64,000 nt of DNA from Patescibacteria group bacterium (GTDB lineage: Bacteria; Patescibacteriota; Patescibacteriia; SCPX01): NCBI GenBank assembly GCA_004298615.1, contig SCPX01000056.1:6876-70875 (forward strand), read 5' to 3'. Positions 37,414 to 61,959 of the stretch are shown here, one piece after another. Both the position numbers and the translations under genes were made by a program. Positions within the stretch are counted from its first letter, which is position 1, and the number at the start of each line of letters is the position of its first letter. A model generated the notes under the pieces. It was given only the letters and a program-made list of their open reading frames with translations, had not been told where the DNA came from and searched no databases.

Positions 37414-37432
37414 ACTAACCCGTTGAATCTAT

Positions 37433-37756: not shown

Positions 37757-37838
37757 TAACCAATACTTCAAAAGAATGAGCGTTTGCCTTTCCGCCTTTT
37801 TGGCGGAAGGAGAGATTCGCATTCTACGACAAGCAAGT

Positions 37839-38150
37839 ATGCAGCCACCACTCAACAAACCGGAAAGCAACGGTGGAAAAAAAAGCGATCAGCTCAATGT
37901 CTTTTACGCTCTGTCTTTGGCTTGGCAAATGGGATTTTTGATTATCGCGCCGATTTTATTGTTCTTATTCGGCGGATATATGATTGACAAATGGCTAAAG
38001 ACCGCTCCGCTTTTCATAATCATCAGCATTTTCGCGGCACTGGCCGTCTCGGTTTACGAAATACACCACTTGATCAAGCCGATGCTGGAAAGCAGCCGAA
38101 AAGAACTGGAAGAAATTACCGGTGAAAAAAGCGATAGCAATAAGAAGTAA
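37839..38150 (+). CDS. AtpZ/AtpI-like ATP-synthase-associated small membrane protein
   Basis: 'FYALSLAWQMGFLIIAPILLFLFGGYMIDKWL' matches the ATPase_gene1 (AtpZ) motif. The start is chosen at 'MQPPLN'. Confidence 0.55.
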   Translation: MQPPLNKPESNGGKKSDQLNVFYALSLAWQMGFLIIAPILLFLFGGYMIDKWLKTAPLFIIISIFAALAVSVYEIHHLIKPMLESSRKELEEITGEKSDSNKK

Positions 38151-38158
38151 AATATTTT

Positions 38159-38938
38159 ATGAGCTCTCCGCATATTTCTCTGATACCGGAACACATTGGG
38201 AATATTTTGGGAATTTCTTTCACCAATTCGGTTTTGACCGCGTGGCTGGTGACGGTTGTTTTGACAATTTTAGCGATCGCAGCCACGAGAGAAATGCGTT
38301 TTGTGCCGAGAGGAATCCAGAATTTTTTTGAAACAATGATAGAATATGTGCTGGGATTGGTGGAACAGGTGATGGAAAATCGCGAGCAAGCGCGAAAGAT
38401 TTTTCCGCTGGTGGCGACAATTTTTCTATTCGTGCTTTTTGCCAATCTGATGGGCATTTTCCCGGGCATAGGTTCTATCGGCATAATCGCGGAGCACGGA
38501 GAAGAATTTATTCCTCTTTTGCGCCCCACTAATGCCGATCTGAATATGACCGTGGCGCTGGCTTTGATTTCCGTGGTTGCCATTCAATTTTTGGGTATCG
38601 CAACGCTCGGATTTATAAAATATTCCAAAAGGTTTTTTAATTTTACCAGTCCCTTGAAGCTCGTCATCGGCTTATTTGAATTGTTGGGAGAATTTACCAA
38701 AATCATTTCTTTTTCTTTCCGGCTTTTCGGCAATATTTTCGCGGGCGAAGTCCTCCTGATCGTTATCGGATTTTTAGCGCCTTACATTATTCCCGTACCG
38801 TTTTTATTTTTGGAAATATTTACTGGTTTTATTCAGGCCTTTATTTTCGCCATACTGACCTTGGTATTTTACAAAGTGGCGATCACGCAAGAAGGCGAAG
38901 AAACAGAAACTCAAGAAGAAACTAAACCCGCTCAATAG
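38159..38938 (+). CDS. F0 ATP synthase subunit a, paralog 1, located outside the main atp operon
   Basis: It has the 'SFRLFGNIFAGEVLL' signature with the essential Arg and five or six TM helices. Confidence 0.8.
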   Translation: MSSPHISLIPEHIGNILGISFTNSVLTAWLVTVVLTILAIAATREMRFVPRGIQNFFETMIEYVLGLVEQVMENREQARKIFPLVATIFLFVLFANLMGIFPGIGSIGIIAEHGEEFIPLLRPTNADLNMTVALALISVVAIQFLGIATLGFIKYSKRFFNFTSPLKLVIGLFELLGEFTKIISFSFRLFGNIFAGEVLLIVIGFLAPYIIPVPFLFLEIFTGFIQAFIFAILTLVFYKVAITQEGEETETQEETKPAQ

Positions 38939-39091: not shown

Positions 39092-39673
39092 ATGTCTTAT
39101 CAAGCAAAAAATTATGATCAATTACTGGGCATCAAGGGATTAAGCGATCAATTATTAAAAAATCATTTTACCCTATATCAAGGATATGTGACTAATTTCA
39201 ATAAAGTAAACGATATATTGGTTGCAATGGAGAGGGAAGGAAAATTCGGAACTCCGGAATACGCGGAATTGAATCGCCGTTTTGGCTGGGAATTCAACGG
39301 GATGCGGCTTCACGAATATTATTTTGAAAATTTGTCAAAAGAAGTGCGCGCTATTGATCAAAATTCCGAATTGCATAAAAAAATTGTTGCCGAGTTCGGC
39401 TCTTATGAAGCGTGGGAAAAAGATTTCAGAGCTATGCTTGCGATGCGGGGGATCGGCTGGGTGGTTTTATATCACGATGCGCAAGCCGACAGATTATTCA
39501 ATGTTTGGATCAACGAGCACGACGCGGGCCACTTTGCCGGTTGTACGCCTATTCTTGTCGTTGATGTTTTTGAGCACGCTTATATGATAGACTACGGCAT
39601 CAAACGCGCGGACTACATTGAAGCGGTAATGAAAGCGATCAGCTGGGAATCAGTTGAACAAAGAATGAAGTGA
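39092..39673 (+). CDS. Fe/Mn superoxide dismutase family protein (divergent N-terminal His region)
   Basis: It has 'DVFEHAYMIDYG' (Asp and His ligands) and 'FNGMRLHEYYFENL'. The N-terminal 'HHxKHH' motif is reduced to 'KNHFTLYQGYV'. Confidence 0.7.
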   Translation: MSYQAKNYDQLLGIKGLSDQLLKNHFTLYQGYVTNFNKVNDILVAMEREGKFGTPEYAELNRRFGWEFNGMRLHEYYFENLSKEVRAIDQNSELHKKIVAEFGSYEAWEKDFRAMLAMRGIGWVVLYHDAQADRLFNVWINEHDAGHFAGCTPILVVDVFEHAYMIDYGIKRADYIEAVMKAISWESVEQRMK

Positions 39674-39679
39674 GTTTGA

Positions 39680-40565: not shown

Positions 40566-42419
40566 ATGTGCGGGATTATTGGATACATCGGAACAAAACA
40601 GGCGTTGCCCATTCTTTTGGAAGGGTTGAGACGCTTGGAATACCGCGGTTATGATTCAGCCGGAGTGGCGCTCGTGGCGCCGGACCCGCTTGGCGGCGAG
40701 GCAAGCGGAAGCAAGATTTTTACCGAGCGGGCGGCGGGGAAAGTGTCCGAGCTTGAAAACAAATTTATTGATAATAATCTTCCCGGGCTCATCGGTATCG
40801 GCCATACGCGTTGGGCGACGCACGGAGCGCCGAAAGAAGAAAACGCCCATCCGCACGGGGATTGCGAAAACAATATCGCCGTGGTGCATAACGGCATTAT
40901 TGAAAATTATCAGGAATTGAAAAACGAACTTGCGGCGCGCGGGCATAAATTCCGGTCGGAAACCGATACGGAAGTTATCGCGCATCTTTTGGAGGACGAG
41001 CCAAAAGAACTTTCCTTGGAAAAAAAGTTGATGAATATTTTGCCGCGGCTGGTCGGGACTTACGGTCTGGCCGTGATTGATAAAAATGATTCGAAAAAAA
41101 TCGTGGTGGCGCGTTTGGGCAGCCCTTTGGTCATCGGCATCAGAGGATCGGAATTTTTTATCGCGTCCGATCCGAGCGCTTTTATTTCTCAAACGAGAGA
41201 GGTTCTTTATTTGGATGACGGAGAGGTCGCGGCTCTTAGTCCCCAAGGCATTGAAATTATTGAAAAAGGAATTTCAAAAAATAAACAATCCGAGCTTTTG
41301 GAATGGAGCGCTGAAAAAATTGAAAAGCAAGGCTATCCGCATTTTATGTTAAAGGAGATAAACGAGCAGCCGAAAGTGATTGAAGACACGATCCGCGGAC
41401 GGTTGGAGGAAAAAGACGGTTTGGCGCATTTGGGCGGACTCAAAGAAGCGGAAGAGAAGTTGCGGAAAATTGAAAAAATAATAATTGTCGGTTGCGGTTC
41501 GGCTCTGTATTCCGGAAAAATAGGGGAATATATAATTGAAGAATATGCCGGGATTCCGGTTGAATGCGAATACGCTTCCGAATTTCGGTACAGAAAACCG
41601 GTTTTGGATGATTCCACCGCGGTTTTGGCCGTGAGCCAATCGGGCGAAACCGCCGATACTTTGGCCGCGATTCGCGAAGCAAAGAGAAAAGGAGTATTGA
41701 CTCTCGGAATGGTTAACGCGGTCGGTTCAACTATCGCGCGCGAAACCGATGCCGGAATTTACAATCACGCCGGACCCGAGATCGGTGTCGCTTCAACCAA
41801 AGCGTTTATTTCGCAAGTGGCCGCATTCGCGCTTATCACGCTTTTTCTCGGAAGACAGAGGCAAATGTCGGCCGTGACCGGCGTTCGCATTGCGGAAGAA
41901 TTAAAAACATTGCCGGAAAAAATATCGCAAATTTTTTCGCAAAAAGAACAAATTGAAAGCATCGCGGAAAAATATGCCAAGTTTTCAAATTTTCTTTATT
42001 TGGGAAGAAAATACAACGCGCCGATCGCTTTGGAAGGAGCTTTAAAGCTCAAAGAAATTTCTTACATTCACGCCGAGGGATATCCGGCCGGAGAAATGAA
42101 GCACGGGCCCATCGCTCTTTTGGACAAGAATTTTCCGGTGGTCGCCATCGCTCCCAAAGACAGCGTTTATGAAAAAATGAAATCGGCCATTGAAGAGGCA
42201 AAAGCCAGACAGGCTCCGGTACTTGCTCTGACCACCGAGGGAAACAATGAAATGGAAAATTTGGCCGATGACATAATTTATATTCCAAAAACTCTGGAAA
42301 TGTTGACGCCGATTTTGAGCATTATTCCTCTCCAACTTTTTGCTTATTATATCGCCGTATCAAAAGGATACGATCCGGACAGGCCGCGCAATCTCGCCAA
42401 ATCAGTGACTGTAGAGTGA
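40566..42419 (+). CDS. glmS: Glutamine--fructose-6-phosphate aminotransferase
   Basis: It starts with an N-terminal 'MCGIIGYIG' Ntn-Cys and has two SIS domains. The C-terminus reads 'AKSVTVE'. Confidence 0.9.
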   Translation: MCGIIGYIGTKQALPILLEGLRRLEYRGYDSAGVALVAPDPLGGEASGSKIFTERAAGKVSELENKFIDNNLPGLIGIGHTRWATHGAPKEENAHPHGDCENNIAVVHNGIIENYQELKNELAARGHKFRSETDTEVIAHLLEDEPKELSLEKKLMNILPRLVGTYGLAVIDKNDSKKIVVARLGSPLVIGIRGSEFFIASDPSAFISQTREVLYLDDGEVAALSPQGIEIIEKGISKNKQSELLEWSAEKIEKQGYPHFMLKEINEQPKVIEDTIRGRLEEKDGLAHLGGLKEAEEKLRKIEKIIIVGCGSALYSGKIGEYIIEEYAGIPVECEYASEFRYRKPVLDDSTAVLAVSQSGETADTLAAIREAKRKGVLTLGMVNAVGSTIARETDAGIYNHAGPEIGVASTKAFISQVAAFALITLFLGRQRQMSAVTGVRIAEELKTLPEKISQIFSQKEQIESIAEKYAKFSNFLYLGRKYNAPIALEGALKLKEISYIHAEGYPAGEMKHGPIALLDKNFPVVAIAPKDSVYEKMKSAIEEAKARQAPVLALTTEGNNEMENLADDIIYIPKTLEMLTPILSIIPLQLFAYYIAVSKGYDPDRPRNLAKSVTVE

Positions 42420-42511
42420 TGCAGGCTTGACTTGTGCGGTTTTGAGTGCTAAACTGTGTTATTAAATTGTTCCTTTTTGAATTTAACCAAATAAACACAG
42501 GGGGATGAAAA

Positions 42512-42745
42512 ATGGAAGAAAAGTTGAATCTAGCGAAAGAAGATCAGAAGTTTATGTTTAAGCTTGTGTTTGGAATAGTTGCGATTTTTTTATTGACTAT
42601 GGCGATAAAGTGGATAATTCCAAATAGAGAAAAGCCGCTAACGCACGAGCAAAAAATGCGGATGGCGATTGAAAAAAATCGCAAGGAAGCATTAAGAAAG
42701 AGATCGGGTCTCTTGTCAGGAAGGCGGGTGAACCGGCATACTTGA
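42512..42745 (+). CDS. Small membrane protein (77 aa)
   Basis: A TTGACT-N17-TAAACT promoter-like pair lies upstream, and one TM helix is predicted. Confidence 0.35.
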   Translation: MEEKLNLAKEDQKFMFKLVFGIVAIFLLTMAIKWIIPNREKPLTHEQKMRMAIEKNRKEALRKRSGLLSGRRVNRHT

Positions 42746-43081
42746 TTTGCCGGAAAAATCAGCTGTTTTTGGCGAGATTTGAAGGATCGCCGGAAAATTT
42801 AACCGTGATAACCGATGAAGTTATTCCCGATGCGACCTGCCAATAATTACGCGGCCGCTCACTGCCCAAACCTGATAAGTTTGGGCTTATTTTTTAGCGC
42901 TTTAGCTTCAAGTCTTGACATGAAAATTTTAAAGGTGTATAAATAATATTGGTTCTTAAAAAATCAAAATTATAAATAATTTACATATAGGACTTACGCG
43001 TTTGAATTCAATTTAGGGGCGGCCAATTTCCGGCCAATGCTTTTAAAATGATCCAAACCTGTAAGCCTTGATGAATCGATT

Positions 43082-44386
43082 ATGCCGAAACTCTCTTCAT
43101 CAGAGGCGTTTATTTTTATTATTCAAATTCTTGTTCTTTTAGGATCTGCCAAAGCAGCAGGCGAATTATTTAAAAAAATCAAACAACCCGCCGTTATAGG
43201 CGAAATTTTAGCCGGTATTATTTTAGGACCGACTGTTTTTGGCGCGCTAATGCCGCAAAGTTTTGACTGGCTTTTTCAATCGGCCAAAGGCGCTTCTCTT
43301 TCTTTGGATGGATTTATTTTATTGTCCGCGATTTTTCTTTTGTTCGCGGTTGGTCTGGAAATTGACATTGAGACGATTAAAAAACAAGGCCGGGCGGTGG
43401 GATGGATGAGCTCTCTGGGCATTCTCATTCCTTTGGCTATCGGCGCCGGCACGGGCTGGCTGATTTACCCGATGGTTGATTTGCCGGTTTCCCGCGAAGT
43501 TTTTTCGCTTTTTATGGGTGCGGCTCTTTCCATTTCGGCTTTGCCGGTGATTGCACGAGTTTTAATGGATTTGGGTCTGCTCAAAAGCAAAATCGGCAGC
43601 TTGATAATCGCGGCCGCGACGATCAATGATGTGGTCGGGTGGCTGATATTCACAATAGCTTTGAGTATGGCGGGAGGCGAAAGCGCACACCTGAATATTT
43701 GGGCTACGATTATTCTGACAATAATTCTCGCGGTTTTATCAGTCACTTTGTTGAAAAAAGCGGTAAATTTTATTTTGGGAATTATTAGTAAAAATTTTTC
43801 AGGAAACGGGGCGATTTTTGGAACAAGCATAGTATTGATGCTTGTTTTTTCTTTAATTACCGAATATATCGGAATCCACGCGGTTTTCGGCGCGTTTTTG
43901 GTGGGCGTCGCGATCGCCGGTTCAAAATACTTCAATAAAGAAGTGAAAGAAAGCATTGGGAATTTTACCGCCAATATTTTGGCGCCGATGTTTTTTGTTT
44001 CCGTGGGATTGAAAGTTAATTTTTTAAAAAGTTTTGACTGGAAAATAGTTTTAATTGTTATCGCGGCGGCTTATATCAGCAAGATTTTGGCCGGGATTAT
44101 CGGCGGACGGCTTGCTAAAATTTCTCAAAAAGAAGGTTTGGCCGTCGGTCTTGGGATTGCCGCTCGCGGCGGAATGGGAATAATTTTGGCAATCCTGGCT
44201 TTGAACGCGCATTTGGTGAACGAGGTTCTTTTTGAAGCGTTGGTGATTATGGCGGTCGTCACTTGCGTAAGCGCCGTATTGATTAAGCCGCTTTTAACCA
44301 AGTCAATAAATAAATCAAGCGCCGGCTCCGAATCAATATCTCCAAGTATTGCCGTTAGCGCGCATCACTCAAATCCGTCGCCTTGA
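43082..44386 (+). CDS. Cation:proton antiporter, CPA2 (Kef/NapA-type)
   Basis: It has a 12-13-TM Na_H_Exchanger profile ('GEILAGIILGP', 'LFAVGLEID'). Confidence 0.75.
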   Translation: MPKLSSSEAFIFIIQILVLLGSAKAAGELFKKIKQPAVIGEILAGIILGPTVFGALMPQSFDWLFQSAKGASLSLDGFILLSAIFLLFAVGLEIDIETIKKQGRAVGWMSSLGILIPLAIGAGTGWLIYPMVDLPVSREVFSLFMGAALSISALPVIARVLMDLGLLKSKIGSLIIAAATINDVVGWLIFTIALSMAGGESAHLNIWATIILTIILAVLSVTLLKKAVNFILGIISKNFSGNGAIFGTSIVLMLVFSLITEYIGIHAVFGAFLVGVAIAGSKYFNKEVKESIGNFTANILAPMFFVSVGLKVNFLKSFDWKIVLIVIAAAYISKILAGIIGGRLAKISQKEGLAVGLGIAARGGMGIILAILALNAHLVNEVLFEALVIMAVVTCVSAVLIKPLLTKSINKSSAGSESISPSIAVSAHHSNPSP

Positions 44387-44453
44387 AAAGCTAAGAGCCG
44401 TTTACCTCTTGCGCCAATTTTTAAACATTAAGACAAGTATAAAAAGTTGACGC

Positions 44454-44484
44454 AAGGGGTAAATAGTTTATTTACCCCTTTTTG
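44454..44484 (+). terminator. Rho-independent terminator (aaggggtaaata-gtt-tatttacccctt followed by tttg)
   Basis: Seen in sequence. Confidence 0.7.
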
Positions 44485-44619
44485 TTCTTTGTAAATTCAG
44501 CAAGATGTCGCGCATTTTCTGCAGGATGAGTTTAGCCCGAACTTTTCGGGATATATGCCCATACTTCAGGATATGCATGAAAAATAAACCAATAACCACA
44601 AACCACAAGGAGGTAGAAA

Positions 44620-45954
44620 ATGAGTCATTCAGTATCGGGAGTTTCTCTGTTTTTGTTGCAAGCGCCGCTTTTAATCGGTTTACCATTTGCCATTTGGCGG
44701 TTCAAATTCGTCCAAAGGTTTATTCCTTTGGTAGTAATCCAGATAATGCTCGGCGTAGTTCTCGGTCCGTCAATATTAGGTCGAGTTTTTCCGGAAATGT
44801 TCAATACGCTATTTCCGCAAGCATCTCTGATGCCTATTAACGGCCTTTCTTGGATTGCCATAATCCTCTTCGGATTTCTTACCGGACTTCATTTTGATTA
44901 TCGCGATATCAAAGGCCGGGGCGCCTCATTTGCCATTACCAGTCTTTCCAGTATTTTAGTGCCTTTCGGCTTGGCTCTTTTGGCCGCCTGGCAGATTTGG
45001 AATTCTTATTCCAATGTTTTTGCCGGCAATAATGCCATTGCTTTCACATTTATTATCGCAATGGGAATTGCGGTCGGAGTGACAGCCTTACCGGTTCTGT
45101 CGGCGATATTGATAGAAATGCATTTGATTCAGCGGCCGCTGGGCAAAGCCGCTCTTGGTTTCGCCACTGTCAATGACGGAGTCCTCTGGATTCTGGTTTC
45201 AATTCTTTTGTCTCTGGCTTCGTCCGGAGCGAATATCAATGCGGCAACAGTCGCAAAAACCATAGGATTAACTCTATTGTTTCTCTCGATTATGGCGCTG
45301 GCAGTAAGGCTGTTTATTATGCGTTGCCTGAATGCGAAAATAATTTCTTCGCAAATCCATAATCAAGATTTGGTGGCGGTGCTTTGCCTGCTTTTCATTT
45401 CGGCTTTTATTACCGAATTGATCGGCGTTCATTTCCTATTGGGCGCTTTTACGGCCGGAGCCATAATTCCCAAGGAAATGTCCCACGGCATCCAGCACAA
45501 ACTTGAGCATTCAGTCTCAATAATCCTTTTACCGTTCTTTTTTATGTCCACGGGACTGCAAACTAAGTTTGACTTCGGCGCTTCGGAGATCTGGATTCTT
45601 TTTGCTCTTATGACCGCCGTATCAATTGTCGGCAAAGTGGCCGGGACTGCCATTCCTGAAAAACTAAGCGGCTCTTCGTGGGTCAGGTCTTTGGAACTCG
45701 GCGCGCTGATGCAGTGCAAGGGACTGATGGAGGTCGTCGTTCTTCAAATGATGCTTGCGGCGCAGATTATTACGCCGCAATGTTTCTCCGCCATGCTTTT
45801 TATGGCCATCACTACTACGGCTTTTACCAAGCCGGCCGTATTGATCGTGCGCAGATATTTCGGAACGCACAAACACCGCATTGAAGACGCCGAACCAATG
45901 ATAATGGACGCTCCGGAGCCGCCGCAATTAATGGAATTGGTAAAAAACGGATAG
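44620..45954 (+). CDS. Cation:proton antiporter, CPA2 family, paralog
   Basis: It has the Na_H_Exchanger profile ('IMLGVVLGPSILG'). Confidence 0.75.
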   Translation: MSHSVSGVSLFLLQAPLLIGLPFAIWRFKFVQRFIPLVVIQIMLGVVLGPSILGRVFPEMFNTLFPQASLMPINGLSWIAIILFGFLTGLHFDYRDIKGRGASFAITSLSSILVPFGLALLAAWQIWNSYSNVFAGNNAIAFTFIIAMGIAVGVTALPVLSAILIEMHLIQRPLGKAALGFATVNDGVLWILVSILLSLASSGANINAATVAKTIGLTLLFLSIMALAVRLFIMRCLNAKIISSQIHNQDLVAVLCLLFISAFITELIGVHFLLGAFTAGAIIPKEMSHGIQHKLEHSVSIILLPFFFMSTGLQTKFDFGASEIWILFALMTAVSIVGKVAGTAIPEKLSGSSWVRSLELGALMQCKGLMEVVVLQMMLAAQIITPQCFSAMLFMAITTTAFTKPAVLIVRRYFGTHKHRIEDAEPMIMDAPEPPQLMELVKNG

Positions 45955-45982
45955 ATTTTATTTAATCTTGCTTTTGTTCTTT

Positions 45983-46025
45983 AAAGTCCAAACTTTTTTA
46001 GTTAAAAGTTTGGACTTTTTTTTAT
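45983..46025 (+). terminator. Rho-independent terminator (aaagtccaaactttt-ttagtt-aaaagtttggacttt followed by ttttta)
   Basis: Seen in sequence. Confidence 0.7.
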
Positions 46026-46156
46026 CCGTTTTCTCTTAAAATTATTCTAAACCATTGCAATTTAATGAAAATTCGGCTATACTGTTTATGTTTTTAAGGA
46101 GATTATTATTTTTTTAAGTGCGGATCAATGAGTTTTGATGGTATATTCATCAAGAT

Positions 46157-48328
46157 TTGTTGACGCGCATTTGTCTCTTCTCTATGCATGAGAGCTCGTT
46201 TTTTCTCGTCGTTTTGGCGGTTTCGTTCCTTTTATTTTTAGCCGCTTATGTGGCGGTTTATGTAAAGCAGATCCGTTTGCCTTATACCGTGGCGTTGACG
46301 GTCTTTGGAATAATTTTAAGCATTTTATCCCGTTTTGCGCCGTTTGATTTTTTAAATGTATTGGAACTTTCGCCCGATCTGGTATTTTATTTATTTTTGC
46401 CAATGCTTATTTTTGAAGGCGCGTACAATATGAAATTTTTGGAGTTGCGCGCGAATTTTAAAACGATTTCGGCTCTTGCGATCGGCAGTTTATTGGTCTC
46501 CGCTTTTTTCATCGGCTGGGCTTTATTTCAAGTTTTCAAAATGATCGGATTGGAAATTCCTTTTATCACTCTTTTACTTTTCGGGGCGCTTATTTCAGCC
46601 ACCGACCCGATCGCCGCTCTGGCGATTTTCAAAGAATTGGGCGTACCCAAAAGATTGCGACTGCTTTTGGAAGGGGAGAGTGTGGCCAATGACGGGACGG
46701 CTCTAGTGCTTTTTCAGGTGGTCTTAGGCATTGCCTCGGGCGGGGCATTGACCGCCTGGAAGCTGGCGGAAAGTTTTGGCAATTTTTGGTTTTTGGTCGG
46801 CGGAGGAATTATTTTCGGAAGCGTTTTAGGGATTATTTTTTCAAAATTGATAGAGCGGATAAGAAATTTAGCCGTTGTGGAAATTACTTTAACATTGGTT
46901 CTCGCCCATACGGCTTTTATTTTTGCGGAAAAATTTCTTCATGTTTCGGGAATTATCGCCACGGCAAGCGCAGCTATGCTGATAGGAAATTACGGCCGGT
47001 ATAAAATTTCTCCGGAAGTGCGGAGCTTTATGGAACATTTTTGGGAGTATATGGCTTTTGTAGCCAACTCCCTTATTTTTTTGCTAATCGGGCTTTCCAT
47101 CCGTGAAGCGCGTTTTGGAAATTACATCTGGCCGATCATAATAGCTTTGGCGGTCGTATTTATCGCACGATTCGTTTCCGTTTACGCGGTAATCCCGTTT
47201 ACCAACAAATTAGCCAAGGAAGAAAAAACGCCTTTTTCCTGGCAATTTATCCTGTCTTGGGGCGGATTGCGCGGCGCTTTGCCTATGGCCATCGTGCTTA
47301 TCTTGCCGGCCGACTCGCCGTTTTTACCGGCCGAACATCGGGAGTTACTTTTAGTTTTGACGGTTTCCGTGATTTATTTTACTCTGCTTTTTCAAGCGCC
47401 GACTTTGACGAAATTTTTAAATAGATTTAGGTTGACGGTCTTGACTCCGGTCCAGCAATTGGAACAGGAAGAAGGATTTTTACTTATGGACTCGGCCATT
47501 TTGAAAAAGCTTGACGAAATGAAAGCGAGCGGGAAATTACCGGCAAGCACTCATGAGCGTCTGCGCGAGCTTTACGCCGGACTTCATAAAGATGCCGAAC
47601 AAAGATTGCGGACGCTGTTAAAAGACCGAGGCGAGATTTTATCGCACGAAGAAATGCTTTTTATATTGCGCAAGCATTTGCTGGGAATTGAGCGGCAAGC
47701 GTACATCCGTCTTTTTGACAAGCACGAGATTTCCGAAAGAATGCTGGTGGTTTTAAAAGATAAAATAGACAGGCAGATTGACCGCTTGGAAAGACGAGTG
47801 CCGCAAGCGGCCGCGGTGGGCAAAGGCAGCCGTCTGGCTTTTTGGGAATTGGAACAGAAAATTTATAAATTTATTGATAAAATCAATATCGCCTTTGTGA
47901 AAAATTGGTCTAAAAACCGAAAGCTTGATTTTGAAATTGAAGTTTATCAGAAATACCGCGCCAGAAAAATTGCCGTTGAAAAAGCGATGAAAGAGCTTGA
48001 CAATATCACGGCGACGCGCGTTTTTATCGACCAGGCGGTCATTGATGCCGTAAGGAAACAATACGATTATTGGTTTGAAAATTCTCTAAAAAGATTGGAT
48101 GAAATGGAAAAGAAAAATCCCATCCTCATTGAATCAATCAGATTCGTGATCGGGAATACCGTATCTATAGCCCTTGAGCAAAAAATACTCCGCGAATTGC
48201 TGCAAAAAGGAATTTTGGCGGAAAACGCTTATGCCGAAGTAAACGATTATCTTCACGGCCTGATTGTTGAAAAACATGATGTTAAGAAAATGTATTTTAA
48301 GGAATTAAAAGAAAGAGGAATGGCTTAA
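46157..48328 (+). CDS. Na+/H+ antiporter of the CPA1 (NhaP) type with a long cytoplasmic regulatory C-terminal domain
   Basis: The TM domain carries 'ATDPIAALAIF' and 'GESVANDGTALVLF'. A C-terminal soluble domain of about 300 aa follows. Confidence 0.75.
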   Translation: MLTRICLFSMHESSFFLVVLAVSFLLFLAAYVAVYVKQIRLPYTVALTVFGIILSILSRFAPFDFLNVLELSPDLVFYLFLPMLIFEGAYNMKFLELRANFKTISALAIGSLLVSAFFIGWALFQVFKMIGLEIPFITLLLFGALISATDPIAALAIFKELGVPKRLRLLLEGESVANDGTALVLFQVVLGIASGGALTAWKLAESFGNFWFLVGGGIIFGSVLGIIFSKLIERIRNLAVVEITLTLVLAHTAFIFAEKFLHVSGIIATASAAMLIGNYGRYKISPEVRSFMEHFWEYMAFVANSLIFLLIGLSIREARFGNYIWPIIIALAVVFIARFVSVYAVIPFTNKLAKEEKTPFSWQFILSWGGLRGALPMAIVLILPADSPFLPAEHRELLLVLTVSVIYFTLLFQAPTLTKFLNRFRLTVLTPVQQLEQEEGFLLMDSAILKKLDEMKASGKLPASTHERLRELYAGLHKDAEQRLRTLLKDRGEILSHEEMLFILRKHLLGIERQAYIRLFDKHEISERMLVVLKDKIDRQIDRLERRVPQAAAVGKGSRLAFWELEQKIYKFIDKINIAFVKNWSKNRKLDFEIEVYQKYRARKIAVEKAMKELDNITATRVFIDQAVIDAVRKQYDYWFENSLKRLDEMEKKNPILIESIRFVIGNTVSIALEQKILRELLQKGILAENAYAEVNDYLHGLIVEKHDVKKMYFKELKERGMA

Positions 48329-48435
48329 GATAGCGCATAATTTGCTAACCTTAGCCAAAATACCGCAAAAGTCTTGCCAAAAACTAATTTTTGGTTTATA
48401 ATGAGCCAATTTGGTTAAAATTAATTCAAATAAAA

Positions 48436-49254
48436 ATGGCTAAAGAATTGGAAATTTCAATCGCGGCCGAACCGATTTTTCATATTGGATCTTTTGCCGT
48501 CACAAACTCGCTATTGAATTCTTGGGTCGCGGTTGTAATAATCGTAATATTATCAATGTTGATAAGGCGAAAAATAACCCGCGTGCCAAGAGGATTGCAA
48601 AATGTTGTTGAAATGATTTTTGAACAAGCTTTGACCTTGGCCGATTCCATCACCGGTTCGCGTGAAAAATCAATGAAATTTTTACCCATAGTTCTCCCGC
48701 TTTTTACTTTTATATTGATAAATAATTGGCTGGGAATCCTGCCGGGCATCGGTTCCATAGGATTTTTTGAAGGAGAAGGGGATCATAAACTGTTTGTTCC
48801 GTTTTTTCGCGGCGCGACCGCCGATTTGAATACCACTTTGGCTCTAGCCGTTGTGACCATAATTTTGACGCACATATTCGGAGTGATAATGACCGGCGCT
48901 TGGAGCCATTTTAATAAATTTATAAGAATCAATCTTTTTCTGGAATTGCCCAGAAAAGTTTTTAAAGAAAAAGAATACTCGGCTCTGCTCACCAATCCGA
49001 TTCAATTTTTCGTCGGTTTGATTGAAATAGTCGGAGAGTTGGCAAAAGTGGCATCGTTGTCTTTCCGGTTGTTCGGCAATATTTTCGCCGGCGAAGTGCT
49101 GATGGGAGCGATTGCTTTGATTTTCGCCTACGCTTTGCCCATACCGTTTATGTTTTTGGAAATGATCGTGGGAATTGTGCAGGCGCTGATTTTCTCAATT
49201 CTGGCATTGGTTTTTATGAGCATTATGTCAACGGATCATGCGCACGAACATTAA
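48436..49254 (+). CDS. atpB: F0 ATP synthase subunit a (operon copy)
   Basis: It has the 'SFRLFGNIFAGEVLM' signature and is the first gene of the atp operon. Confidence 0.85.
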   Translation: MAKELEISIAAEPIFHIGSFAVTNSLLNSWVAVVIIVILSMLIRRKITRVPRGLQNVVEMIFEQALTLADSITGSREKSMKFLPIVLPLFTFILINNWLGILPGIGSIGFFEGEGDHKLFVPFFRGATADLNTTLALAVVTIILTHIFGVIMTGAWSHFNKFIRINLFLELPRKVFKEKEYSALLTNPIQFFVGLIEIVGELAKVASLSFRLFGNIFAGEVLMGAIALIFAYALPIPFMFLEMIVGIVQALIFSILALVFMSIMSTDHAHEH

Positions 49255-49323
49255 TTTATGTTTATTATTAAAAATTATTAATTAATAATGCGATCTTCTT
49301 GAAAAAGAAAGAATCGCGCATAA

Positions 49324-49545
<222 letters not shown>

Positions 49546-49557
49546 TTAAAAAATACC

Positions 49558-50061
49558 ATGGAATCAATCATTGAAACATTTCATCTTGATTGGAAATTAT
49601 TTTTAGCCCAAGCGGTGAATTTCACCATTGTGGCGGTGGTTTTGTGGCGCTTTGCTTTCAAGCCGTTGGCGAAAAATCTGTCCGAACGGACCAAAACCAT
49701 TGAAAAAAGCCTGAAGCAAGCCAAGGAAATCGCGGAACAAAGAGAAGAGATGCTGAAATTGCGCGAACAGGCCGTGCTGGAAGCGCAGATTGAAGCCAAA
49801 AAAGTGATTGATGAGACCAGCAATAAGATGAAAGAATACGAAGAACAGATGCGGATTAAAACGCAAAATCAAGCGGAAGTTATTTTAACCAAAGCCAAGT
49901 CCGATATTCAGGAAGAGAAAGGAAAAATGTTGAGCGAGGTCAGACAAGAAGCGGCCGATTTGGTGGTAATGGCTTTGGAAAAAGTTTTGCAGGAAAAAGT
50001 CACGGCCGATTTGGATAAAAAATTGGCGGAAAAAGCGGTTAATAGCATTGCGACGAATTAA
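49558..50061 (+). CDS. atpF: F0 ATP synthase subunit b
   Basis: An N-terminal TM helix is followed by a long charged helix. Confidence 0.8.
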   Translation: MESIIETFHLDWKLFLAQAVNFTIVAVVLWRFAFKPLAKNLSERTKTIEKSLKQAKEIAEQREEMLKLREQAVLEAQIEAKKVIDETSNKMKEYEEQMRIKTQNQAEVILTKAKSDIQEEKGKMLSEVRQEAADLVVMALEKVLQEKVTADLDKKLAEKAVNSIATN

Positions 50062-50066
50062 TTATT

Positions 50067-50456
50067 ATGAAAAAAATAAATGCAAAACATTACGCTCAAG
50101 CGCTTTCCAGAATTTCCGGCGCTCCGGATTTAAGCGTTGTTTTGGATAATTTTTTTAACTTGGTTCGGAAAAACGGCCAATTGTCCGGATTGGGAGAAAT
50201 ATTAAGCGAATACGAACGCATAGCGCTGGAAAAAAAAGAAGGTATTGCCGCGGATTTGTCAGTGGCTGCTTCGGAGAATAAGACAATAATCACGGAGATG
50301 ATTAAACGGATAAAAATTCCCGGCATTGAAAAATTTAAAATTACCGCCAGAGACGACAAAGATCTTTTAGGCGGATTTAAATTACGCGTCAGGGATATTT
50401 TGATAGACGCCGGCTTAAAGAAAAAAATTACTGACCTTAAGAAATCATTTAATTAG
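50067..50456 (+). CDS. atpH: ATP synthase subunit delta (OSCP), short form
   Basis: Assigned by position between atpF and atpA, with the OSCP-like C-terminus '[16 protein letters not shown]'. Confidence 0.6.
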
Positions 50457-50457
50457 T

Positions 50458-51975
50458 ATGCCCAATGACGAACGGATTATCCGGTATTTACAAGAAAAAA
50501 TCAATCAATTCGCGCCTAAAACTGAAATTGAGCGCGTAGGCACCGTGACCGAAGTGGCTGACGGCGTGGCAAGAATAGACGGACTATCTAACGCGGCGGC
50601 CAGTGAAATGCTTGAATTTATCACCAAAGACAACGAAGTTATAAATGGAATGGTTTTGAACCTGGAAGAAGATTCGGTCGGCGCCATGATTCTCGGAGAT
50701 TACGCCAAAATAAAAGAAGGCGATACGGTCAAATCAACCGGCCGGATTTTATCAATTCCGGTGGGCGATGAATTGCTTTCACGGGTGATTGATCCTTTGT
50801 GCAATCCCGTGGACGGCCGGGGACAGATAGAATCGTCAAAATACTATCCGGTTGAGAAAAAAGCGCCCGGGGTGATTGAGCGCGAATCCGTGAAAAGCCC
50901 GCTCCAGACCGGCATCAAGGCCGTTGATACGATGATTCCGATCGGCCGGGGGCAGCGGGAATTGATTATTGGCGACAGGCAGACCGGAAAATCCCAAATC
51001 GCCATTGATACGATTATTAATCAAAAAGGGCAAAATACGATTTGCATTTATGTGGCGATCGGGCAAAAAGAATCAAAAATCGCGCGCATCGCGGCCAGAT
51101 TGGAAGAAGCGGGAGCTATGGATTACACGATTGTGGTGGTGGCGGGCGCGTCTGATCCGGCGCCGCTTTCTTTTCTCGCGCCGTATTCCGGCTGCGCCAT
51201 TGGAGAATATTTTATGGATCAGGGAAAAGATGTTTTGATCGTGTATGACGATCTTTCCAAACACGCGACAAGCTACCGGCAGGTATCTCTGATTTTGCGA
51301 CGGCCCCCCGGCAGGGAAGCATACCCGGGCGATGTTTTTTATCTGCACTCCAGGCTTTTGGAAAGGTCTTGCAAATTATCCAAAGAATTGGGCGGGGGGA
51401 GTATCACCGCTTTGCCGATTATTGAAACGCAAGCCGGCGATGTATCCGCTTATATTCCGACCAATGTTATTTCCATAACGGACGGCCAGATATATCTTGA
51501 AGGCGACCTTTTTTATCAAGGAGTGCGGCCGGCCGTCAATGTGGGTCTTTCCGTTTCCCGCGTGGGATCGGCGGCGCAGACCAAAGCAATGAAAAAAGTG
51601 GCCGGAAAAATCCGCTTGGAATTGGCGCAATATCGGGAATTGGCGGCGTTCGCGCAATTTGCGTCCGATCTTGACGAGACGACCAAGAAACAAATTGAGC
51701 GGGGAAAAAGATTGGTGGAAGTATTGAAGCAAGACCAATTCAGTCCGATGTCAATGGAGCATCAGGTAGCCATAATTTACGCGGCTATAAACAGTTATAT
51801 TGATGATGTGGCGGTTGAGAAAGTGAAGGACTTTGAAAATCAGTTTCATTCTTATCTTGACGCGAGTTTCGGAGGCTTGATGAAAAAACTGGGAGAACAA
51901 AAAGAGCTTACACCGGAAATTGAAAAGGAATTAAAAAAAGCGATAGAGGTTTTTAAAAAAGTTTATGGCCAGTAA
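50458..51975 (+). CDS. atpA: ATP synthase subunit alpha
   Basis: It has a Walker A motif ('GDRQTGKS') and the 'ITDGQIYLE' motif. Confidence 0.95.
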
Positions 51976-52861
51976 TACGCGCCAAATCAGAAGGCAAATC
52001 AAATCCATTAAAAATACGGCGAAAATTACGCGCGCGATGGAAATGATTTCAGCCGTTAAGCTGCAAAAAACTCAAGCGCAGGCTTTGGCTTCACGCGCTT
52101 ATTCGCTTGCCGCCAAAGAAATTCTGGAAAAGCTCACTCTGGGCATTGAAACAAGCGAGCATCCTTTTTTCATCGAGCGGCCGATAGAGCGAATCGGCAT
52201 TATCGTAATGTCGTCCAATCGCGGATTGTGCGGAAGCCTGAACGGCAATATTTTGAAAACCGTTTTGGATTATGAAAAAAATATTTTAGTGAATTTTCCC
52301 GGCGCTGAAATTTCTTACATTACAATGGGAAAAAAAATTCGCGACAGCCTGGCCAGGCTTGGAAAAAATATTTTAGCCGATTTTCCCAAACCGGACATCG
52401 CTTTGAATAGTTTGCCGGCCGTCCCATTGGCGAATTTGGCGGTTGAGGAATTTTCCAAGAAAAATCTGGATCGCGTGGTTATGATTTTTCCCGAATCAGT
52501 TTCAATCGTTAATCAAAAACCGATCGTTTTGCAGCTTTTGCCTCTGGCGTATGAATTTGCCGAAGAAGCGGCCGAAAAAGAAGCTGAAAAAAAACGCCGC
52601 ATTTCTTATATTTTTGAGCCGACCAAAGAGGAGATTTTGGGGCAAGCGCTCGTGAGACTTTTAGAAACGCGGGTTTTTCAATCGCTTTTGGAAGCCAATG
52701 CCGCGGAGCACGCGGCCAGAATGGTGGCTATGAAAAACGCGACCGACAGCGCCAAGGATTTGGTTGACGATCTGACGCTTTTTTACAACCGCACCCGCCA
52801 AGCCGCGATCACTCAAGAAGTATCGGAAATCACTTCGGGACGGTTGGCGCTTGAAAATTAA
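51965..52861 (+). CDS. atpG: ATP synthase subunit gamma
   Basis: The gamma-subunit N-terminus '[26 protein letters not shown]' is present. It overlaps atpA by 11 nt. Confidence 0.9.
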
Positions 52862-52892
52862 ATATGATTTATATTTAAATACTTAATACTAA

Positions 52893-54293
<1,401 letters not shown>

Positions 54294-54302
54294 AGTGGTA
54301 AT

Positions 54303-54725
54303 ATGTCAAAGAAGATCCATTTTCAAATAGTCACGCCGGAAAAAGTCGCGTATAAGGATGATGTTGATTCTATTACTTTGTCTACGCAAATAGGAGAAAT
54401 TACCGTTTTGCCGGATCACGCGCCTTTGATTTCATCTTTAAAATCAGGCGAGGCGATTATCAAAAAAGACGGAGAGGAATTAAGCATTGCCGTTTCCGGA
54501 GGATTTCTTCAAATCCAGCCGAAAAATAGAGCGGTGGTATTGGCGGATGCGGCCGAGCGGGCCGAAGAAATTTCCGAAGAGCGGGCCGAGGAAGCGAGGA
54601 AGCGGGCCGAAGAAATTTTAAAAGAAAAAAGATTGGATAAGGCCGAAATGGCCACGGCCGCCGCCGCTTTGGAAAAATCGTTAATACGATTAAAAGTCGC
54701 GCGGAGGCGGACCGGAAGACGCTAA
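54303..54725 (+). CDS. atpC: ATP synthase subunit epsilon
   Basis: It has an N-terminal beta-sandwich and a C-terminal helical hairpin. Confidence 0.85.
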   Translation: MSKKIHFQIVTPEKVAYKDDVDSITLSTQIGEITVLPDHAPLISSLKSGEAIIKKDGEELSIAVSGGFLQIQPKNRAVVLADAAERAEEISEERAEEARKRAEEILKEKRLDKAEMATAAAALEKSLIRLKVARRRTGRR

Positions 54726-54728
54726 AAT

Positions 54729-55268
54729 ATGTTCAGACTTTTTTATAAAATTTTTACCACGCCAAAAACCGTCATAAGCGCTGATGATTTGAATTGCGAG
54801 CAGGCGGAAGTGAATGCTATCGGCGCGAAGATTCAAGAAAAAGTGAAAAAGCTTTTTCGGGGATCTCTGGCTATAAGAATGGTGGATGCCGGATCAACCA
54901 ACGCGGCCGAGTATGAATTGACGGCTTTGTCCAACGCTTTTTACGATGCGGACAGATTCGGAATTCATTTTGTGGCCTCGCCGAAGCACGCGGATATGCT
55001 TATAGTCACCGGGCCGGTGACGAGAAATATGAAAAACGCCTTGATCAAGGCCTACGAGGCAACTCCTGATCCAAAAATCGTCGTGGCGCTGGGAGACGAT
55101 GCCATAGACGGCGGAATTTTCAAAGGATCTTACGCGACTTATGACGGAGTGAAAAAAGTAATACCGGTTGATTATGAAATTCCCGGCGATCCGCCCAGTC
55201 CCAAAACAATCCTTTGCCATTTATTGAAAATCATCGGAACAATTGAAGCTAAACGGGCAGGAGGATAA
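54729..55268 (+). CDS. NuoB/HyfI-like (complex-I 20-kDa / hydrogenase small-subunit homologue) lacking all four [4Fe-4S] cysteine ligands
   Basis: Alignment to NuoB by eye gives 'FVASPKHADMLIVTGPVT' = 'FRASPRQSDVMIVAGTLT'. 'VVALGDDAIDGG' corresponds to 'ISMGSCANSGG' (Cys to Asp). 'IPVDYEIPGDPPSP' corresponds to 'VPVDIYVPGCPPT' (Cys to Asp). The CCxxE box is replaced by 'DAGSTNAAE'. Confidence 0.75.
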   Translation: MFRLFYKIFTTPKTVISADDLNCEQAEVNAIGAKIQEKVKKLFRGSLAIRMVDAGSTNAAEYELTALSNAFYDADRFGIHFVASPKHADMLIVTGPVTRNMKNALIKAYEATPDPKIVVALGDDAIDGGIFKGSYATYDGVKKVIPVDYEIPGDPPSPKTILCHLLKIIGTIEAKRAGG

Positions 55269-55274
55269 AACTAA

Positions 55275-57326
55275 TTGGATATGCAAGAATTAATATTGTC
55301 TCAAACTGTTTTTTTCGCCGTATTGGCGTTGTTTGGCTTGGGAGCGATATCCTCTTTATTTTTCAGAAAAGATGATAAGTTGGCGAATTTAGCCGGAAGT
55401 TTTTTCGCCATTTTAGGATCGCTTTTAGGAATTGTTTACGCGGTTGCCGCCCTGTATTCCGATACATCGATTTTTTATGAGATGAAATCATCTTTTCCCT
55501 TGTTGTCATATAATTTCAATATAGATCGGCTCGCCGCGTTTTTTATTTTCATAATTTCCTTGATCTCGCTTTTTTGTTCAATTTATGGCGCAGGTTACAT
55601 AAAACATTTTTACGGAAAATACAATATCGGCACGCTTGGATTTTTTTACAATCTTTTTATCGCGGGAATGCTTTTGGTCGTCTCTTCCTCTAATATTTTA
55701 TTTTTCCTCATTGCCTGGGAAATAATGTCTTTGGCGTCTTATTTTCTGGTTATTTACGAACGGGACAAGCAGGAAAATATAAAAGCCGGATTTCTGTATT
55801 TTGTAATGACGCATATTGGCACCGCTTTTATAATTTTGGCGCTTTTATTGCTGTATAAGTTCGCCGGATCTTTTGATTTTTTGGCGATAAAAGAAGCCGT
55901 CGGGAGTATTCCGCCGCTTGCGAAAGACGCGATTTTTATTCTCGCTTTTATCGGTTTCGGCACAAAAGCGGGAATTATCCCAATGCATATCTGGCTGCCC
56001 GCCGCTCATCCGGCCGCGCCGTCCCATGTTTCCGCCTTGATGTCCGGCGTGATGATCAAGACCGGAATTTATATGATGATTCGTATATTTTTTGATATTC
56101 TGCCAAATGCTCCGGTTTGGTGGGGAACGGTGATTTTAATTTGCGGCGCCACTTCGGCTCTTTTAGGAGTTTTGTACGCGCTTACCGAGCATGACATCAA
56201 AAGACTTTTGGCTTATCACAGCATAGAAAATATCGGCATAATTCTTTTGGGTCTGGGCTCTGCTCTGGTTTTTGCAGCACTTAATATGAAATCGTTTGCG
56301 GCACTGGCTCTTATTGCTTCTCTTTTTCATATTTTAAACCACGCTGTTTTTAAGTCGCTTTTATTTTTGGGCGCCGGATCAGTGATTTCAAAAACTCATA
56401 CGAGAAATATTGAAGAATACGGCGGACTCATCAAACATATGCCGCAGACTGCGCTGTTTTTTCTGGCCGGATCAATGGCTATCTCCGCTCTTCCGCCTTT
56501 CAACGGTTTTTTCAGCGAATGGCTGACATTTCAAGCGCTGTTTGAAGGAATAAAATCAATGAGCTCGTTTTATCGCTGGATTTTTGTTTTTTCAGCCGGA
56601 TCTTTGGTCCTGACAAGCGGTTTGGCGCTGGCTTGTTTTGTTAAGGCCTTTGGTCTGACATTTTTGGCCCGACCGAGAAGCGAGGCAGTAAAGCACGCCA
56701 AAGAATCCTCATTTTCTTTGAGGCTCGGAATGGCGACTTTGGCGGTTTTATGTTTGCTTCTTGGCTTGTTATCAGGATTTTTATTCGCGATTTTTAATAA
56801 GATATTGCAAGGCATAAAATCTTTCGGCGATTATGATCCGGCGCTGGTTGTTTCGCAAAATCATCTCATCAGCGTCAACGGCGGATTTTCCTCAATTTCC
56901 GCTCCGGCGATTTTTGCCGTATTGATTTTGGCCGGTATTGCCGCGTTCGCGATAATCCGCTTAATTTCAAAAGATCAAAAAGTAAAAATCGGCGCCACTT
57001 GGGATTGCGGGACAAATCTCGGTCCCAGAATGGAAATCACTTCCACCGGATTTTCCCGGACGATTATTATGATTTTTAAAGGAATATTAAAGCCGAGCAA
57101 ACAAGCGGGGATTGAATATTCTGACGCCAATATGAGATATTTCCCAAAATCAAGAACTATGGTTTTTGAGATAAGTGATGTTTACAAAAAATATTTTTAC
57201 AAGCCGCTTTATAGTTTTGTTTTTAAAATTTCCGCGCGAGTCAAAAAAATACAAAGCGGCAATGTCAATGCCTATGTTTTATACATCTTTATGGCTTTGA
57301 TATTATTGCTGTTTTTCGCGGTTTAA
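55275..57326 (+). CDS. NuoL/MrpA/HyfB-like antiporter-type membrane subunit
   Basis: It is 683 aa with a Proton_antipo_M core ('WLPAAHPAAPSHVSALMSGVMIKTGIY'). Confidence 0.75.
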   Translation: MDMQELILSQTVFFAVLALFGLGAISSLFFRKDDKLANLAGSFFAILGSLLGIVYAVAALYSDTSIFYEMKSSFPLLSYNFNIDRLAAFFIFIISLISLFCSIYGAGYIKHFYGKYNIGTLGFFYNLFIAGMLLVVSSSNILFFLIAWEIMSLASYFLVIYERDKQENIKAGFLYFVMTHIGTAFIILALLLLYKFAGSFDFLAIKEAVGSIPPLAKDAIFILAFIGFGTKAGIIPMHIWLPAAHPAAPSHVSALMSGVMIKTGIYMMIRIFFDILPNAPVWWGTVILICGATSALLGVLYALTEHDIKRLLAYHSIENIGIILLGLGSALVFAALNMKSFAALALIASLFHILNHAVFKSLLFLGAGSVISKTHTRNIEEYGGLIKHMPQTALFFLAGSMAISALPPFNGFFSEWLTFQALFEGIKSMSSFYRWIFVFSAGSLVLTSGLALACFVKAFGLTFLARPRSEAVKHAKESSFSLRLGMATLAVLCLLLGLLSGFLFAIFNKILQGIKSFGDYDPALVVSQNHLISVNGGFSSISAPAIFAVLILAGIAAFAIIRLISKDQKVKIGATWDCGTNLGPRMEITSTGFSRTIIMIFKGILKPSKQAGIEYSDANMRYFPKSRTMVFEISDVYKKYFYKPLYSFVFKISARVKKIQSGNVNAYVLYIFMALILLLFFAV

Positions 57327-57335
57327 TGGAATAAT

Positions 57336-58265: not shown

Positions 58266-58268
58266 AAT

Positions 58269-58931
58269 ATGATTGACGCGATGAACAATTCATTTTTTCA
58301 ATTTACGGCAATCACGGCGGTTTTTTTGTCAGCCGTGCTGCTCCATATTACGAAAAGAAATTCAACTGCGGTCTCCTTGTATTTTATCCAATCGCTCGCC
58401 GTGGCCGCTTTGCTTTTCCGGCCGCTGTTTGAAAATTTCTCTTTGGCCGTTCTGCTGATGGCCGGATTGACTTTGGCGATAAAAGCCGCAGTCGCGCCGC
58501 TTTTCTTTTCAAGATTGATCAAAAGACATCAATTGAAATTTTCCGCCAGCACTTATTTGAATACGCCGCTGACTTTGATCGTCATAGCCGCTCTTGCCGC
58601 GCTGACCAATTCTCGGATTTTTTCCCACATCGCGTCGATTGATCCGGACAATAAAAAAATATTGGGACTGGCTATTGCCGTGATCCTCGTATCTTTTTTT
58701 CTGATCATCAATCGCAAAGGCGCCGTGTCGCAAATCATCGGGATTCTGTCGCTGGAGAACGGGATCGTCGCTTTTGCTTTGTTTTCCGGACTGGAACAAT
58801 CGCCGGCGCTCCAAATCGGCGTGATATTTGATCTTTTTGTCTGGGTGATTATTGCCGCCGTTTTTATTTCAATGATCTATAAGCAATTCGGTTCGCTTGA
58901 TGTGACCGAACTGAAGCATTTGAAAGAATAA
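58269..58931 (+). CDS. HyfE-like small membrane subunit (NuoK-related)
   Basis: Its 220-aa size and position match hyfE. It has 6-7 TM helices; motif support is weak. Confidence 0.5.
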   Translation: MIDAMNNSFFQFTAITAVFLSAVLLHITKRNSTAVSLYFIQSLAVAALLFRPLFENFSLAVLLMAGLTLAIKAAVAPLFFSRLIKRHQLKFSASTYLNTPLTLIVIAALAALTNSRIFSHIASIDPDNKKILGLAIAVILVSFFLIINRKGAVSQIIGILSLENGIVAFALFSGLEQSPALQIGVIFDLFVWVIIAAVFISMIYKQFGSLDVTELKHLKE

Positions 58932-58934
58932 TTT

Positions 58935-60383: not shown

Positions 60384-60384
60384 T

Positions 60385-61956: not shown

Positions 61957-61959
61957 TTT

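Follow-up and report, generated by a model that had tools for sequence, protein, structure and literature searches.

The a-subunit of the F-type ATP synthase is normally encoded by a single-copy gene that is tied to its c-ring. In Helicobacter and Campylobacter atpB is solitary, and the operon of the N-ATPases has the order atpD-C-Q-R-B-E-F-A-G, with AtpR present and delta absent. Isoform genes of a single subunit are known as the several atpE genes for c in Acetobacterium woodii and as atp6-1 and atp6-2 in Arabidopsis mitochondria, and variable blocks downstream of glmS are familiar as an attTn7-type hot spot. Here we report on two adjacent genes, atpZ and atpB, at 37839-38938 of a 64,000-nucleotide (nt) stretch of DNA from a Patescibacteria group bacterium (contig SCPX01000056.1, assembly GCA_004298615.1), which is called the window throughout. 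The two genes stand alone, about 9.5 kb away from a complete atp operon that has its own atpB. Judged by its sequence, the pair is an intact, selectively maintained module of the conserved chromosomal backbone in a small clade of Patescibacteria. The genome was seen through this 64 kb window, and the relatives were seen as contigs of 33 kb or less. Our literature searches gave no account of a conserved orphan atpZ-atpB pair beside a complete, a-containing operon, and nothing relevant on duplicated or orphan a-subunit genes, in the candidate phyla radiation (CPR) or elsewhere. The genes in question are:

37839..38150, + strand: atpZ, ATPase_gene1 family, 103 amino acids (aa), two predicted membrane helices (PF09527).
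38159..38938, + strand: a1 (atpB copy 1), a stand-alone full-length Fo a-subunit of 259 aa (PF00119, TIGR01131).
48436..49254, + strand: a2 (atpB copy 2), first gene of the operon, 272 aa (PF00119 139.6 bits, TIGR01131 105.2 bits).
49333..54725, + strand: atpE, atpF, atpH (short delta), atpA, atpG, atpD and atpC (Pfam, open reading frames (ORFs) and a c-subunit hidden Markov model (HMM) scan).

A sequence-only reading of this DNA had proposed that the window encodes two full-length a-subunits, and the profile searches bear this out at the same positions. With 162.5 bits against PF00119 (cutoff 33.9) and 111.8 bits against TIGR01131 (cutoff 102.6), a1 (NCBI protein TAN57670.1) is above both cutoffs, and so is a2; the two proteins are 38% identical over their full length. 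The domain PF09527 is found with 46.3 bits (cutoff 26.6) inside the ORF 37740-38150, the conserved start of atpZ being the ATG at 37839 by comparison with three relatives, including loci L002 and L099 (L numbers are our locus labels). The window AtpZ aligns with AtpZ proteins from complete operons. Only 8 nt separate atpZ from a1, and the two are the sole atp genes at the site. When all six-frame ORFs of the 64 kb were scanned, an AtpZ HMM found one AtpZ gene and an HMM built from CPR c-subunits found one F-type c gene, at 49333; these scans gave neither a hidden c-like ORF nor a second AtpZ gene near the pair. The earlier description of the first a copy, with AtpZ in front of it and none of the c, b or F1 genes in its vicinity, is thus correct. 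While a2 is encoded with c and b in an operon, a1 is not: a superoxide dismutase (SOD) gene comes next. Eight unrelated genes (nine ORFs if a 77-aa ORF is counted) lie between a1 and the operon, among them the SOD, a membrane protein, glmS, the 77-aa ORF and three PF00999 antiporters.

The window operon, atpBEFHAGDC, has the standard order, with delta present and without atpZ or atpI, and it contains the only c, b and F1 genes of the window (starts: c 49333, b 49558, delta 50067, alpha 50458, gamma 51965, beta 52911, epsilon 54303). That this operon, which begins at 48436, lacks an AtpZ/I gene had already been noticed, and indeed the single AtpZ of the window is the backbone one. The a2 protein is of the Buchananbacteria type, 60-70% identical to Buchananbacteria-like a-subunits. 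Operons of the a2 type at 69-70% identity, namely L093 and L100, are preceded by a PF09527 gene of their own, whereas those at 80% identity or more (the window, L095 and L096) are without atpZ and are preceded by transporters. Because only these operons at 80% or more miss atpZ, the lineage with a backbone atpZ is the very lineage whose operon is without one. The delta subunit (50067-50456) is short, with 129 aa, and matches positions 47-171 only of the OSCP profile; short delta subunits (133-135 aa) are also seen in other CPR operons.

For the residues that matter in proton translocation we used E. coli AtpB as the alignment reference, verified to be identical to PDB chain 5t4o_K. In E. coli numbering, R210, N214, E219, Q252, N116 and N148 occur in a1, in a2 and in all aligned relatives, 7/7 members of the a1 clade among them, so that the essential Arg claimed for a1 is in place. 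Position 245 is a Glu in a1, in a2 and in all seven clade members, as is usual in many non-enterobacterial a-subunits. Additionally, a1 aligns end to end with solved a-subunits, best with 9itj_T (188 bits, HMMER), and further structure matches are spinach, Bacillus PS3, E. coli and mycobacterial chains; the fold class of a1 is settled by these full-length alignments. The comparison of a1 with a2 that the sequence-only reading had asked for shows ion-path residues kept in both and nearly the same helices 5 and 6, which face the c-ring; across the a1 clade these two helices are almost invariant. In the alignment, a2 and its clade carry an 18-aa insert before helix 5, and a1 and its clade end in an acidic tail, roughly 15 residues long, that is specific to them.

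The pair is found at the same backbone site in L001-L004 (a1 90% identical), L099 (91%), L092 (76%) and L005-L007 (72%), the last group including the metagenome-assembled genome GCA_035289705.1 (HLC99517.1). The shared local order is ScpB-TIM-FeS-assembly protein-(two membrane proteins)-atpZ-a1-SOD. In L099 atpZ was missed by the gene caller, yet an intact 91-aa ORF is present. We calculated the ratio of nonsynonymous to synonymous substitution rates (dN/dS) by the Nei-Gojobori method between the window and its sister, the contig Ga0209541_10002802 (L001 and L090; sister metagenome-assembled genome HEY4495547.1). It is 0.074 for a1 (dS 0.86), 0.126 for atpZ, 0.062 for TIM, 0.078 for SOD and 0.104 for GlmS. 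The constraint on a1 is similar to that on TIM and GlmS. Deeper pairs give 0.10-0.15 for a1, and a2 is in the same range with 0.05-0.12. In the comparison of the window with the 72% relative, the identity of a1 is 74% by codon alignment and 72% by tblastn, that of TIM 60% and that of atpZ about 52%. Because the dN/dS of a1 is low and a1 is better conserved than TIM, a1 is by these measures a functional gene and not a decaying remnant.

How the pair relates to ordinary operons becomes visible in its nearest relatives. The a-subunits that are 45-57% identical to a1 come from Uhrbacteria, Berkelbacteria, Moranbacteria and other CPR, and no relative closer than 56% was among the matches listed in a scan of species-representative genomes. 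In the Uhrbacteria locus L008 (GCA_016188385.1), whose a-subunit is 55% identical to a1, the order is atpZ-a-c-b-delta-alpha-gamma-beta-epsilon. Given this order, the window pair corresponds to the 5' end of an ordinary CPR operon: atpZ-a1 is the homologue of the leading gene pair in the standard operon atpZ-B-E-F-H-A-G-D-C. In a neighbour-joining tree, the deep nodes of which are unreliable, a1 and its close relatives form one clade of ordinary branch length inside the CPR radiation, and a2 groups with Buchananbacteria- and Gribaldobacteria-like sequences. Among the CPR species representatives, F-type genes directly follow the a gene in 78/80 loci, and the remaining two are cut by contig ends and hence uninformative; the 80 loci are the matches listed in the genome scan with a1, in which the generic FGNIFAGE motif dominated. 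With a inside an operon in all 78 informative loci, an atpZ-a pair that stands alone is not typical of CPR in general. A different order, beta-epsilon-atpZ-a-c-b-alpha-gamma, is seen in the Peribacteria/Peregrinibacteria loci L042, L048, L051, L061, L068 and L078 (in L061 atpZ was not detected).

The a2 operon lies in a block of genes between glmS and comEC, the content of which differs among close relatives:

40566..42419, + strand: glmS, which borders the variable block on the left (the sister has a GATase/SIS-domain orthologue).
42420..61958, + strand: variable block with the 77-aa ORF, three antiporters, atpBEFHAGDC and a six-gene Mbh/Ehr-like complex (Pfam).
43082-44386, + strand: antiporter 1 (PF00999, 204 bits).
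44620-45954, + strand: antiporter 2 (PF00999, 147 bits).
46157-48328, + strand: antiporter 3, NHE3 (PF00999, 220 bits).
54729..61956, + strand: Mbh/Ehr-like membrane complex of NuoB-, NuoL-, NuoH-, NuoK-, NuoM- and NuoCD-like proteins (Pfam, sequence inspection).
61960..63477, + strand: comEC, right border of the variable block (PF03772).

The three PF00999 hits, at 43082, 44620 and 46157, are the cation:proton antiporters that had been placed between the two a copies before. The sister contig is collinear with window positions 29322-42417 at 80-95% nt identity, and collinearity resumes at comEC (window 61959-63380, 87% nt identity). The interval between glmS and comEC measures 19.5 kb in the window vs 9.2 kb in the sister (L090 6022-15212), where it encodes a complete V/A-type ATPase (subunits I, K, C, F, A, B and D by Pfam), directly followed by comEC. 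An unassigned 188-aa ORF between K and C could possibly be subunit E. V-type ATPases in Paceibacterales were reported before (PMC11974145). We found no transposase, Tn7-like genes or terminal repeats at the block, and its borders share no k-mer of at least 11 nt; the genes inside it all code for transporters, subunits of the ATPase or complex-I-like proteins.

The window block has the tetranucleotide signature of the rest of the window (r 0.97-0.99). The V-type block of the sister has a GC content of 0.36 vs 0.42 in the backbone, and among 5.8 billion proteins we found none that is related to its A subunit with an identity between 100% and 63%. For these two reasons the exchange looks recent. 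A metagenome scan with the V-type subunit C of the sister returned the sister contig only and no further relatives. In L095 the 3' end of glmS (95% nt identity to the sister, 83% to the window) is joined to CBS-CitMHS-a2-c-b-delta-alpha, and L096 repeats the NHE3-a2-c joint of the window. The a2 operons of the window and L095 have diverged by a dS of about 1.0, which agrees with the backbone divergence. In the simplest history, both the backbone atpZ-a1 and an operon downstream of glmS that starts with a2 were present in the ancestor of the group, and the sister lineage has apparently swapped this operon recently for a foreign V/A-type operon. We also attempted to tie the a2-type operon to the 72% lineage by shared samples (L005 and L100 are from ERZ28563803, L004 and L102 from ERZ27254752); with a tetranucleotide r of 0.89 for L005 and L100 this link was too weak and was rejected.

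What we propose, with a confidence that stays somewhat below an even chance, is one F1Fo with two interchangeable a-subunit isoforms, a1 and a2, and with AtpZ supplied from the backbone in trans. The single set of c, b, delta and F1 genes would build one F1Fo enzyme, this enzyme could be fitted with either a1 or a2, and the backbone AtpZ would serve it in trans. Both isoforms would offer the same Arg/Asn/Glu/Gln proton path and would differ in the cytoplasmic loop insert of a2 and the acidic C-terminal tail of a1. The fixed neighbourhood of a1, with an FeS-assembly protein and a superoxide dismutase, hints at a regulation separate from that of the operon. Strong purifying selection on both copies, together with their long coexistence, makes alternative Fo assemblies, as suggested in the sequence-only reading, the most plausible explanation.

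Several points weigh against this proposal. The single c-b-F1 set holds for the visible 64 kb of the genome, and ATPase genes were not found in the 72-76% relatives on the contigs examined (for the 72% relatives, within 11 kb). No F-type c gene was seen on the 32.6 kb contig of the sister, where a1 is intact. An intact a1 beside a V/A-type block weakens the link between a1 and the operon, though the exchange looks recent. Moreover, the near-identity of the helices that face the c-ring offers no obvious functional difference that would back two regimes, and the assembly of a1 with a c-ring, like its proton translocation, is predicted.

Other explanations of the pair have to be weighed on the same data. 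If a1 and AtpZ belonged to a second, dispersed F-type enzyme with its other genes outside the window, the cell would possess two complete F-type enzymes, or in the sister an F-type plus a V-type one. The solitary atpB of Helicobacter is a model for such a split, which would also account for the intact a1 in the sister with its V-type block and for the 72% relatives without an ATPase within 11 kb. Dispersed atp genes have a precedent in Pelobacter and Geobacter, where atpZIBE is apart from atpXFHAGDC (PMC3543383), and genera with two rotary ATPases are common (PMC11738941). However, an a-less F-type cluster appeared in none of the loci examined, a stands next to c in the 78 informative CPR representatives, and keeping two or three rotary ATPases would put a burden on a genome as small as that of a CPR bacterium. 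The operon in the variable block has furthermore lost atpZ exactly in the lineages with a backbone atpZ, which fits sharing better than two independent enzymes, and we regard a split operon, the main rival, as unlikely, if still worth keeping in mind. It is also conceivable that an ancestral operon lost its distal genes as the operon after glmS took over, and that the pair is the stump which was left. AtpZ would then be selected for assembly or Mg2+ handling, and a1 would persist by coupling and contribute little. The operon without atpZ, whose relatives have one, and the short distance of 8 nt between the two genes would fit this, as would the roles of AtpZ/AtpI in Mg2+ uptake and assembly, which are known from the genetics of Bacillus pseudofirmus only (PMC4453477). 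Yet a1 is the more constrained of the two genes (0.074 vs 0.126; 72-74% vs about 52% in the distant relative), and almost invariant helices 5 and 6 are not what one expects of a passenger gene. A retention mainly for AtpZ is for this reason improbable. As to the remnant of an N-ATPase-like second operon (the alternate Na+-type F1Fo) considered in the sequence-only reading, a small membrane protein does stand beside atpB in N-ATPase operons, and here a PF09527 match is found in that place. But against TIGR03306 (altF1_A) a1 reaches 92.5 and a2 75.7 bits, far below the cutoff of 302.1, while TIGR01131 passes; the nearest relatives of a1 head ordinary delta-containing CPR operons, the tree puts a1 inside the CPR F-type radiation, and AtpR-like, F1, c or b genes are absent beside it. 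With scores this low and relatives from ordinary F-type operons we consider the N-ATPase origin refuted and give it hardly any probability. The earlier idea does fit in a weaker form, since the pair resembles the start of an ordinary F-type operon from CPR.

If the role were independent of F1Fo, AtpZ and a1 would form a stand-alone membrane module, to which the two membrane proteins next to them may also belong, and which acts as an ion leak, as a sensor or as partner of a non-F-type-c-ring structure. The constant link to SODs of two unrelated families, the acidic C-terminal tail that only this clade has, and the intact a1 and atpZ next to a block that holds a V/A-type ATPase with its own subunit I can all be cited for it. 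On the other hand a1 retains all the residues that act on the carboxylate of the c-ring, and an a-subunit is not known to have a function without a c-ring. The two membrane proteins are missing in the 72% relatives. Retention in the sister weighs little given the recent V-type exchange, and in a relative-rate count the sister branch does not have significantly more changes (8 vs 4). We thus consider an F1Fo-independent role doubtful. It is likewise improbable that the clade keeps a1 and AtpZ as a free-standing module whichever rotary ATPase, F or V/A, fills the block, and there is little to expect from the idea that such a module functions without an F-type c-ring, for example as a regulated ion path tied to its oxidative-stress neighbours. 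Finally, the source is a metagenome-assembled contig, which could in principle join two organisms by an assembly or binning error, and the a1 gene could be a decaying pseudogene. The a1 region is, however, reproduced at 100% in an independent Logan assembly, the joints a1-SOD-glmS, glmS to a2 operon and NHE3-a2 each recur in independent contigs, the tetranucleotide signatures are uniform, and the a1 ORF is intact in 7 lineages with low dN/dS. We see next to no chance for an artefact or a pseudogene.

The immediate surroundings of the pair hold the following features:

36808-37413 and 37433-37756, + strand: two unannotated membrane proteins of 201 aa and 107 aa (ORFs; gaps of 19 to about 80 nt).
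37790..37808, + strand: stem-loop TTCCGCC-TTTTT-GGCGGAA, read from the sequence; it adjoins the ribosome-binding site AAGGAGAG upstream of atpZ.
39092..39673, + strand: Fe/Mn superoxide dismutase, directly after a1 (PF02777).

The 201-aa and 107-aa proteins, possibly co-transcribed with atpZ-a1, could not be assigned to a family by Pfam or NCBIfam; the 90% relatives have them with 92-95% conservation, and they are absent in the 72% relatives. L099 has the stem-loop 5' of atpZ at the corresponding position, and so does L002, where the stem sequence differs (GGCGCC repeats). No convincing terminator was found after a1, and promoter-like sites around the pair are no more frequent than in shuffles. 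The gene that follows a1 is always an SOD, yet it comes from two unrelated families: the Fe/Mn type in L001-4, L092 and L099, and a Ni-SOD with its maturation peptidase in L005-7 (PF09055; L005 1162-1614). In L001 the reading frame of atpZ is shifted by a tandem duplication (~9290-9500) of some 110 nt. This duplication, which may reflect variation between strains or an assembly error, is missing in L002, although L002 shares the V-type block and its a1 gene is identical. Upstream of the conserved backbone segment there are two tRNA-Met (CAT) genes in tandem (33614-33804, 42 nt apart).

The six-gene cluster after atpC seems to be devoid of redox ligands: the NuoCD-like protein has 'EKISGDSAFSH' and the C-terminal 'NLSYSGNDL' where [NiFe] hydrogenases carry Cys motifs, and the NuoB-like protein is without the Cys ligands of an FeS cluster. 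The cluster may be an Ehr-type, possibly non-redox, ion-translocating module. In L052 (CAYHUB010000003.1, 9308-16333) the genes a-c-b-alpha-gamma are directly followed by homologues of the NuoB-like (69%) and NuoL-like (64%) proteins of the window, beta and epsilon not being detected between gamma and the NuoB-like gene. An ATP synthase and an Mbh/Ehr-like complex are therefore linked in another CPR genome, too.

If the two-isoform proposal is true, a reduced genome with two diverged a genes under equal purifying selection would indicate that stator isoforms may tune one ATP synthase, and such tuning would be a cheap adaptation of the only chemiosmotic machine of a minimal cell. In addition, close relatives exchange whole energy-conversion cassettes at one site, an F-type ATPase with antiporters and an Mbh/Ehr-like complex against a V/A-type ATPase, which amounts to a natural experiment on rotary ATPase replacement. 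The sister is at the same time a test case for the survival of an F-type a-subunit in a V-type background.

Compared with the standard CPR operon, as in L008, the window pair has the same two proteins in the same order and spacing as the 5' end, but it stops after atpB: the SOD is next, and the other seven genes are absent at the site. The dispersed atp genes of Pelobacter and Geobacter (PMC3543383) resemble it in that the a-subunit and AtpZ are away from the F1 genes. In those systems, however, each enzyme has a single a gene, which in Geobacteraceae is still accompanied by c, whereas the distant operon of the window has its own a gene, a2, and c is not beside a1. With N-ATPase second operons the locus shares a second F-type gene set in the genome and a small membrane protein beside atpB; their nine-gene operon with its characteristic order, the missing delta and their own a family, TIGR03306, are not seen here. 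Like the systems with isoform genes, the window would provide two genes for the same membrane subunit of a rotary ATPase. There, the c genes lie within the operon or the copies are near-identical organellar ones, while a1 and a2 are only 38% identical and have separate loci and separate histories. The block itself starts at the stop codon of glmS and has a strain-variable content, like an attTn7-type hot spot, but no transposase, Tn7-like genes or terminal repeats were found, and its cargo is a complete energy-conversion set. In summary, the arrangement fits neither the standard operon nor the N-ATPase nor the known split operons, and the parts from which it is made are ordinary members of PF00119 and PF09527.

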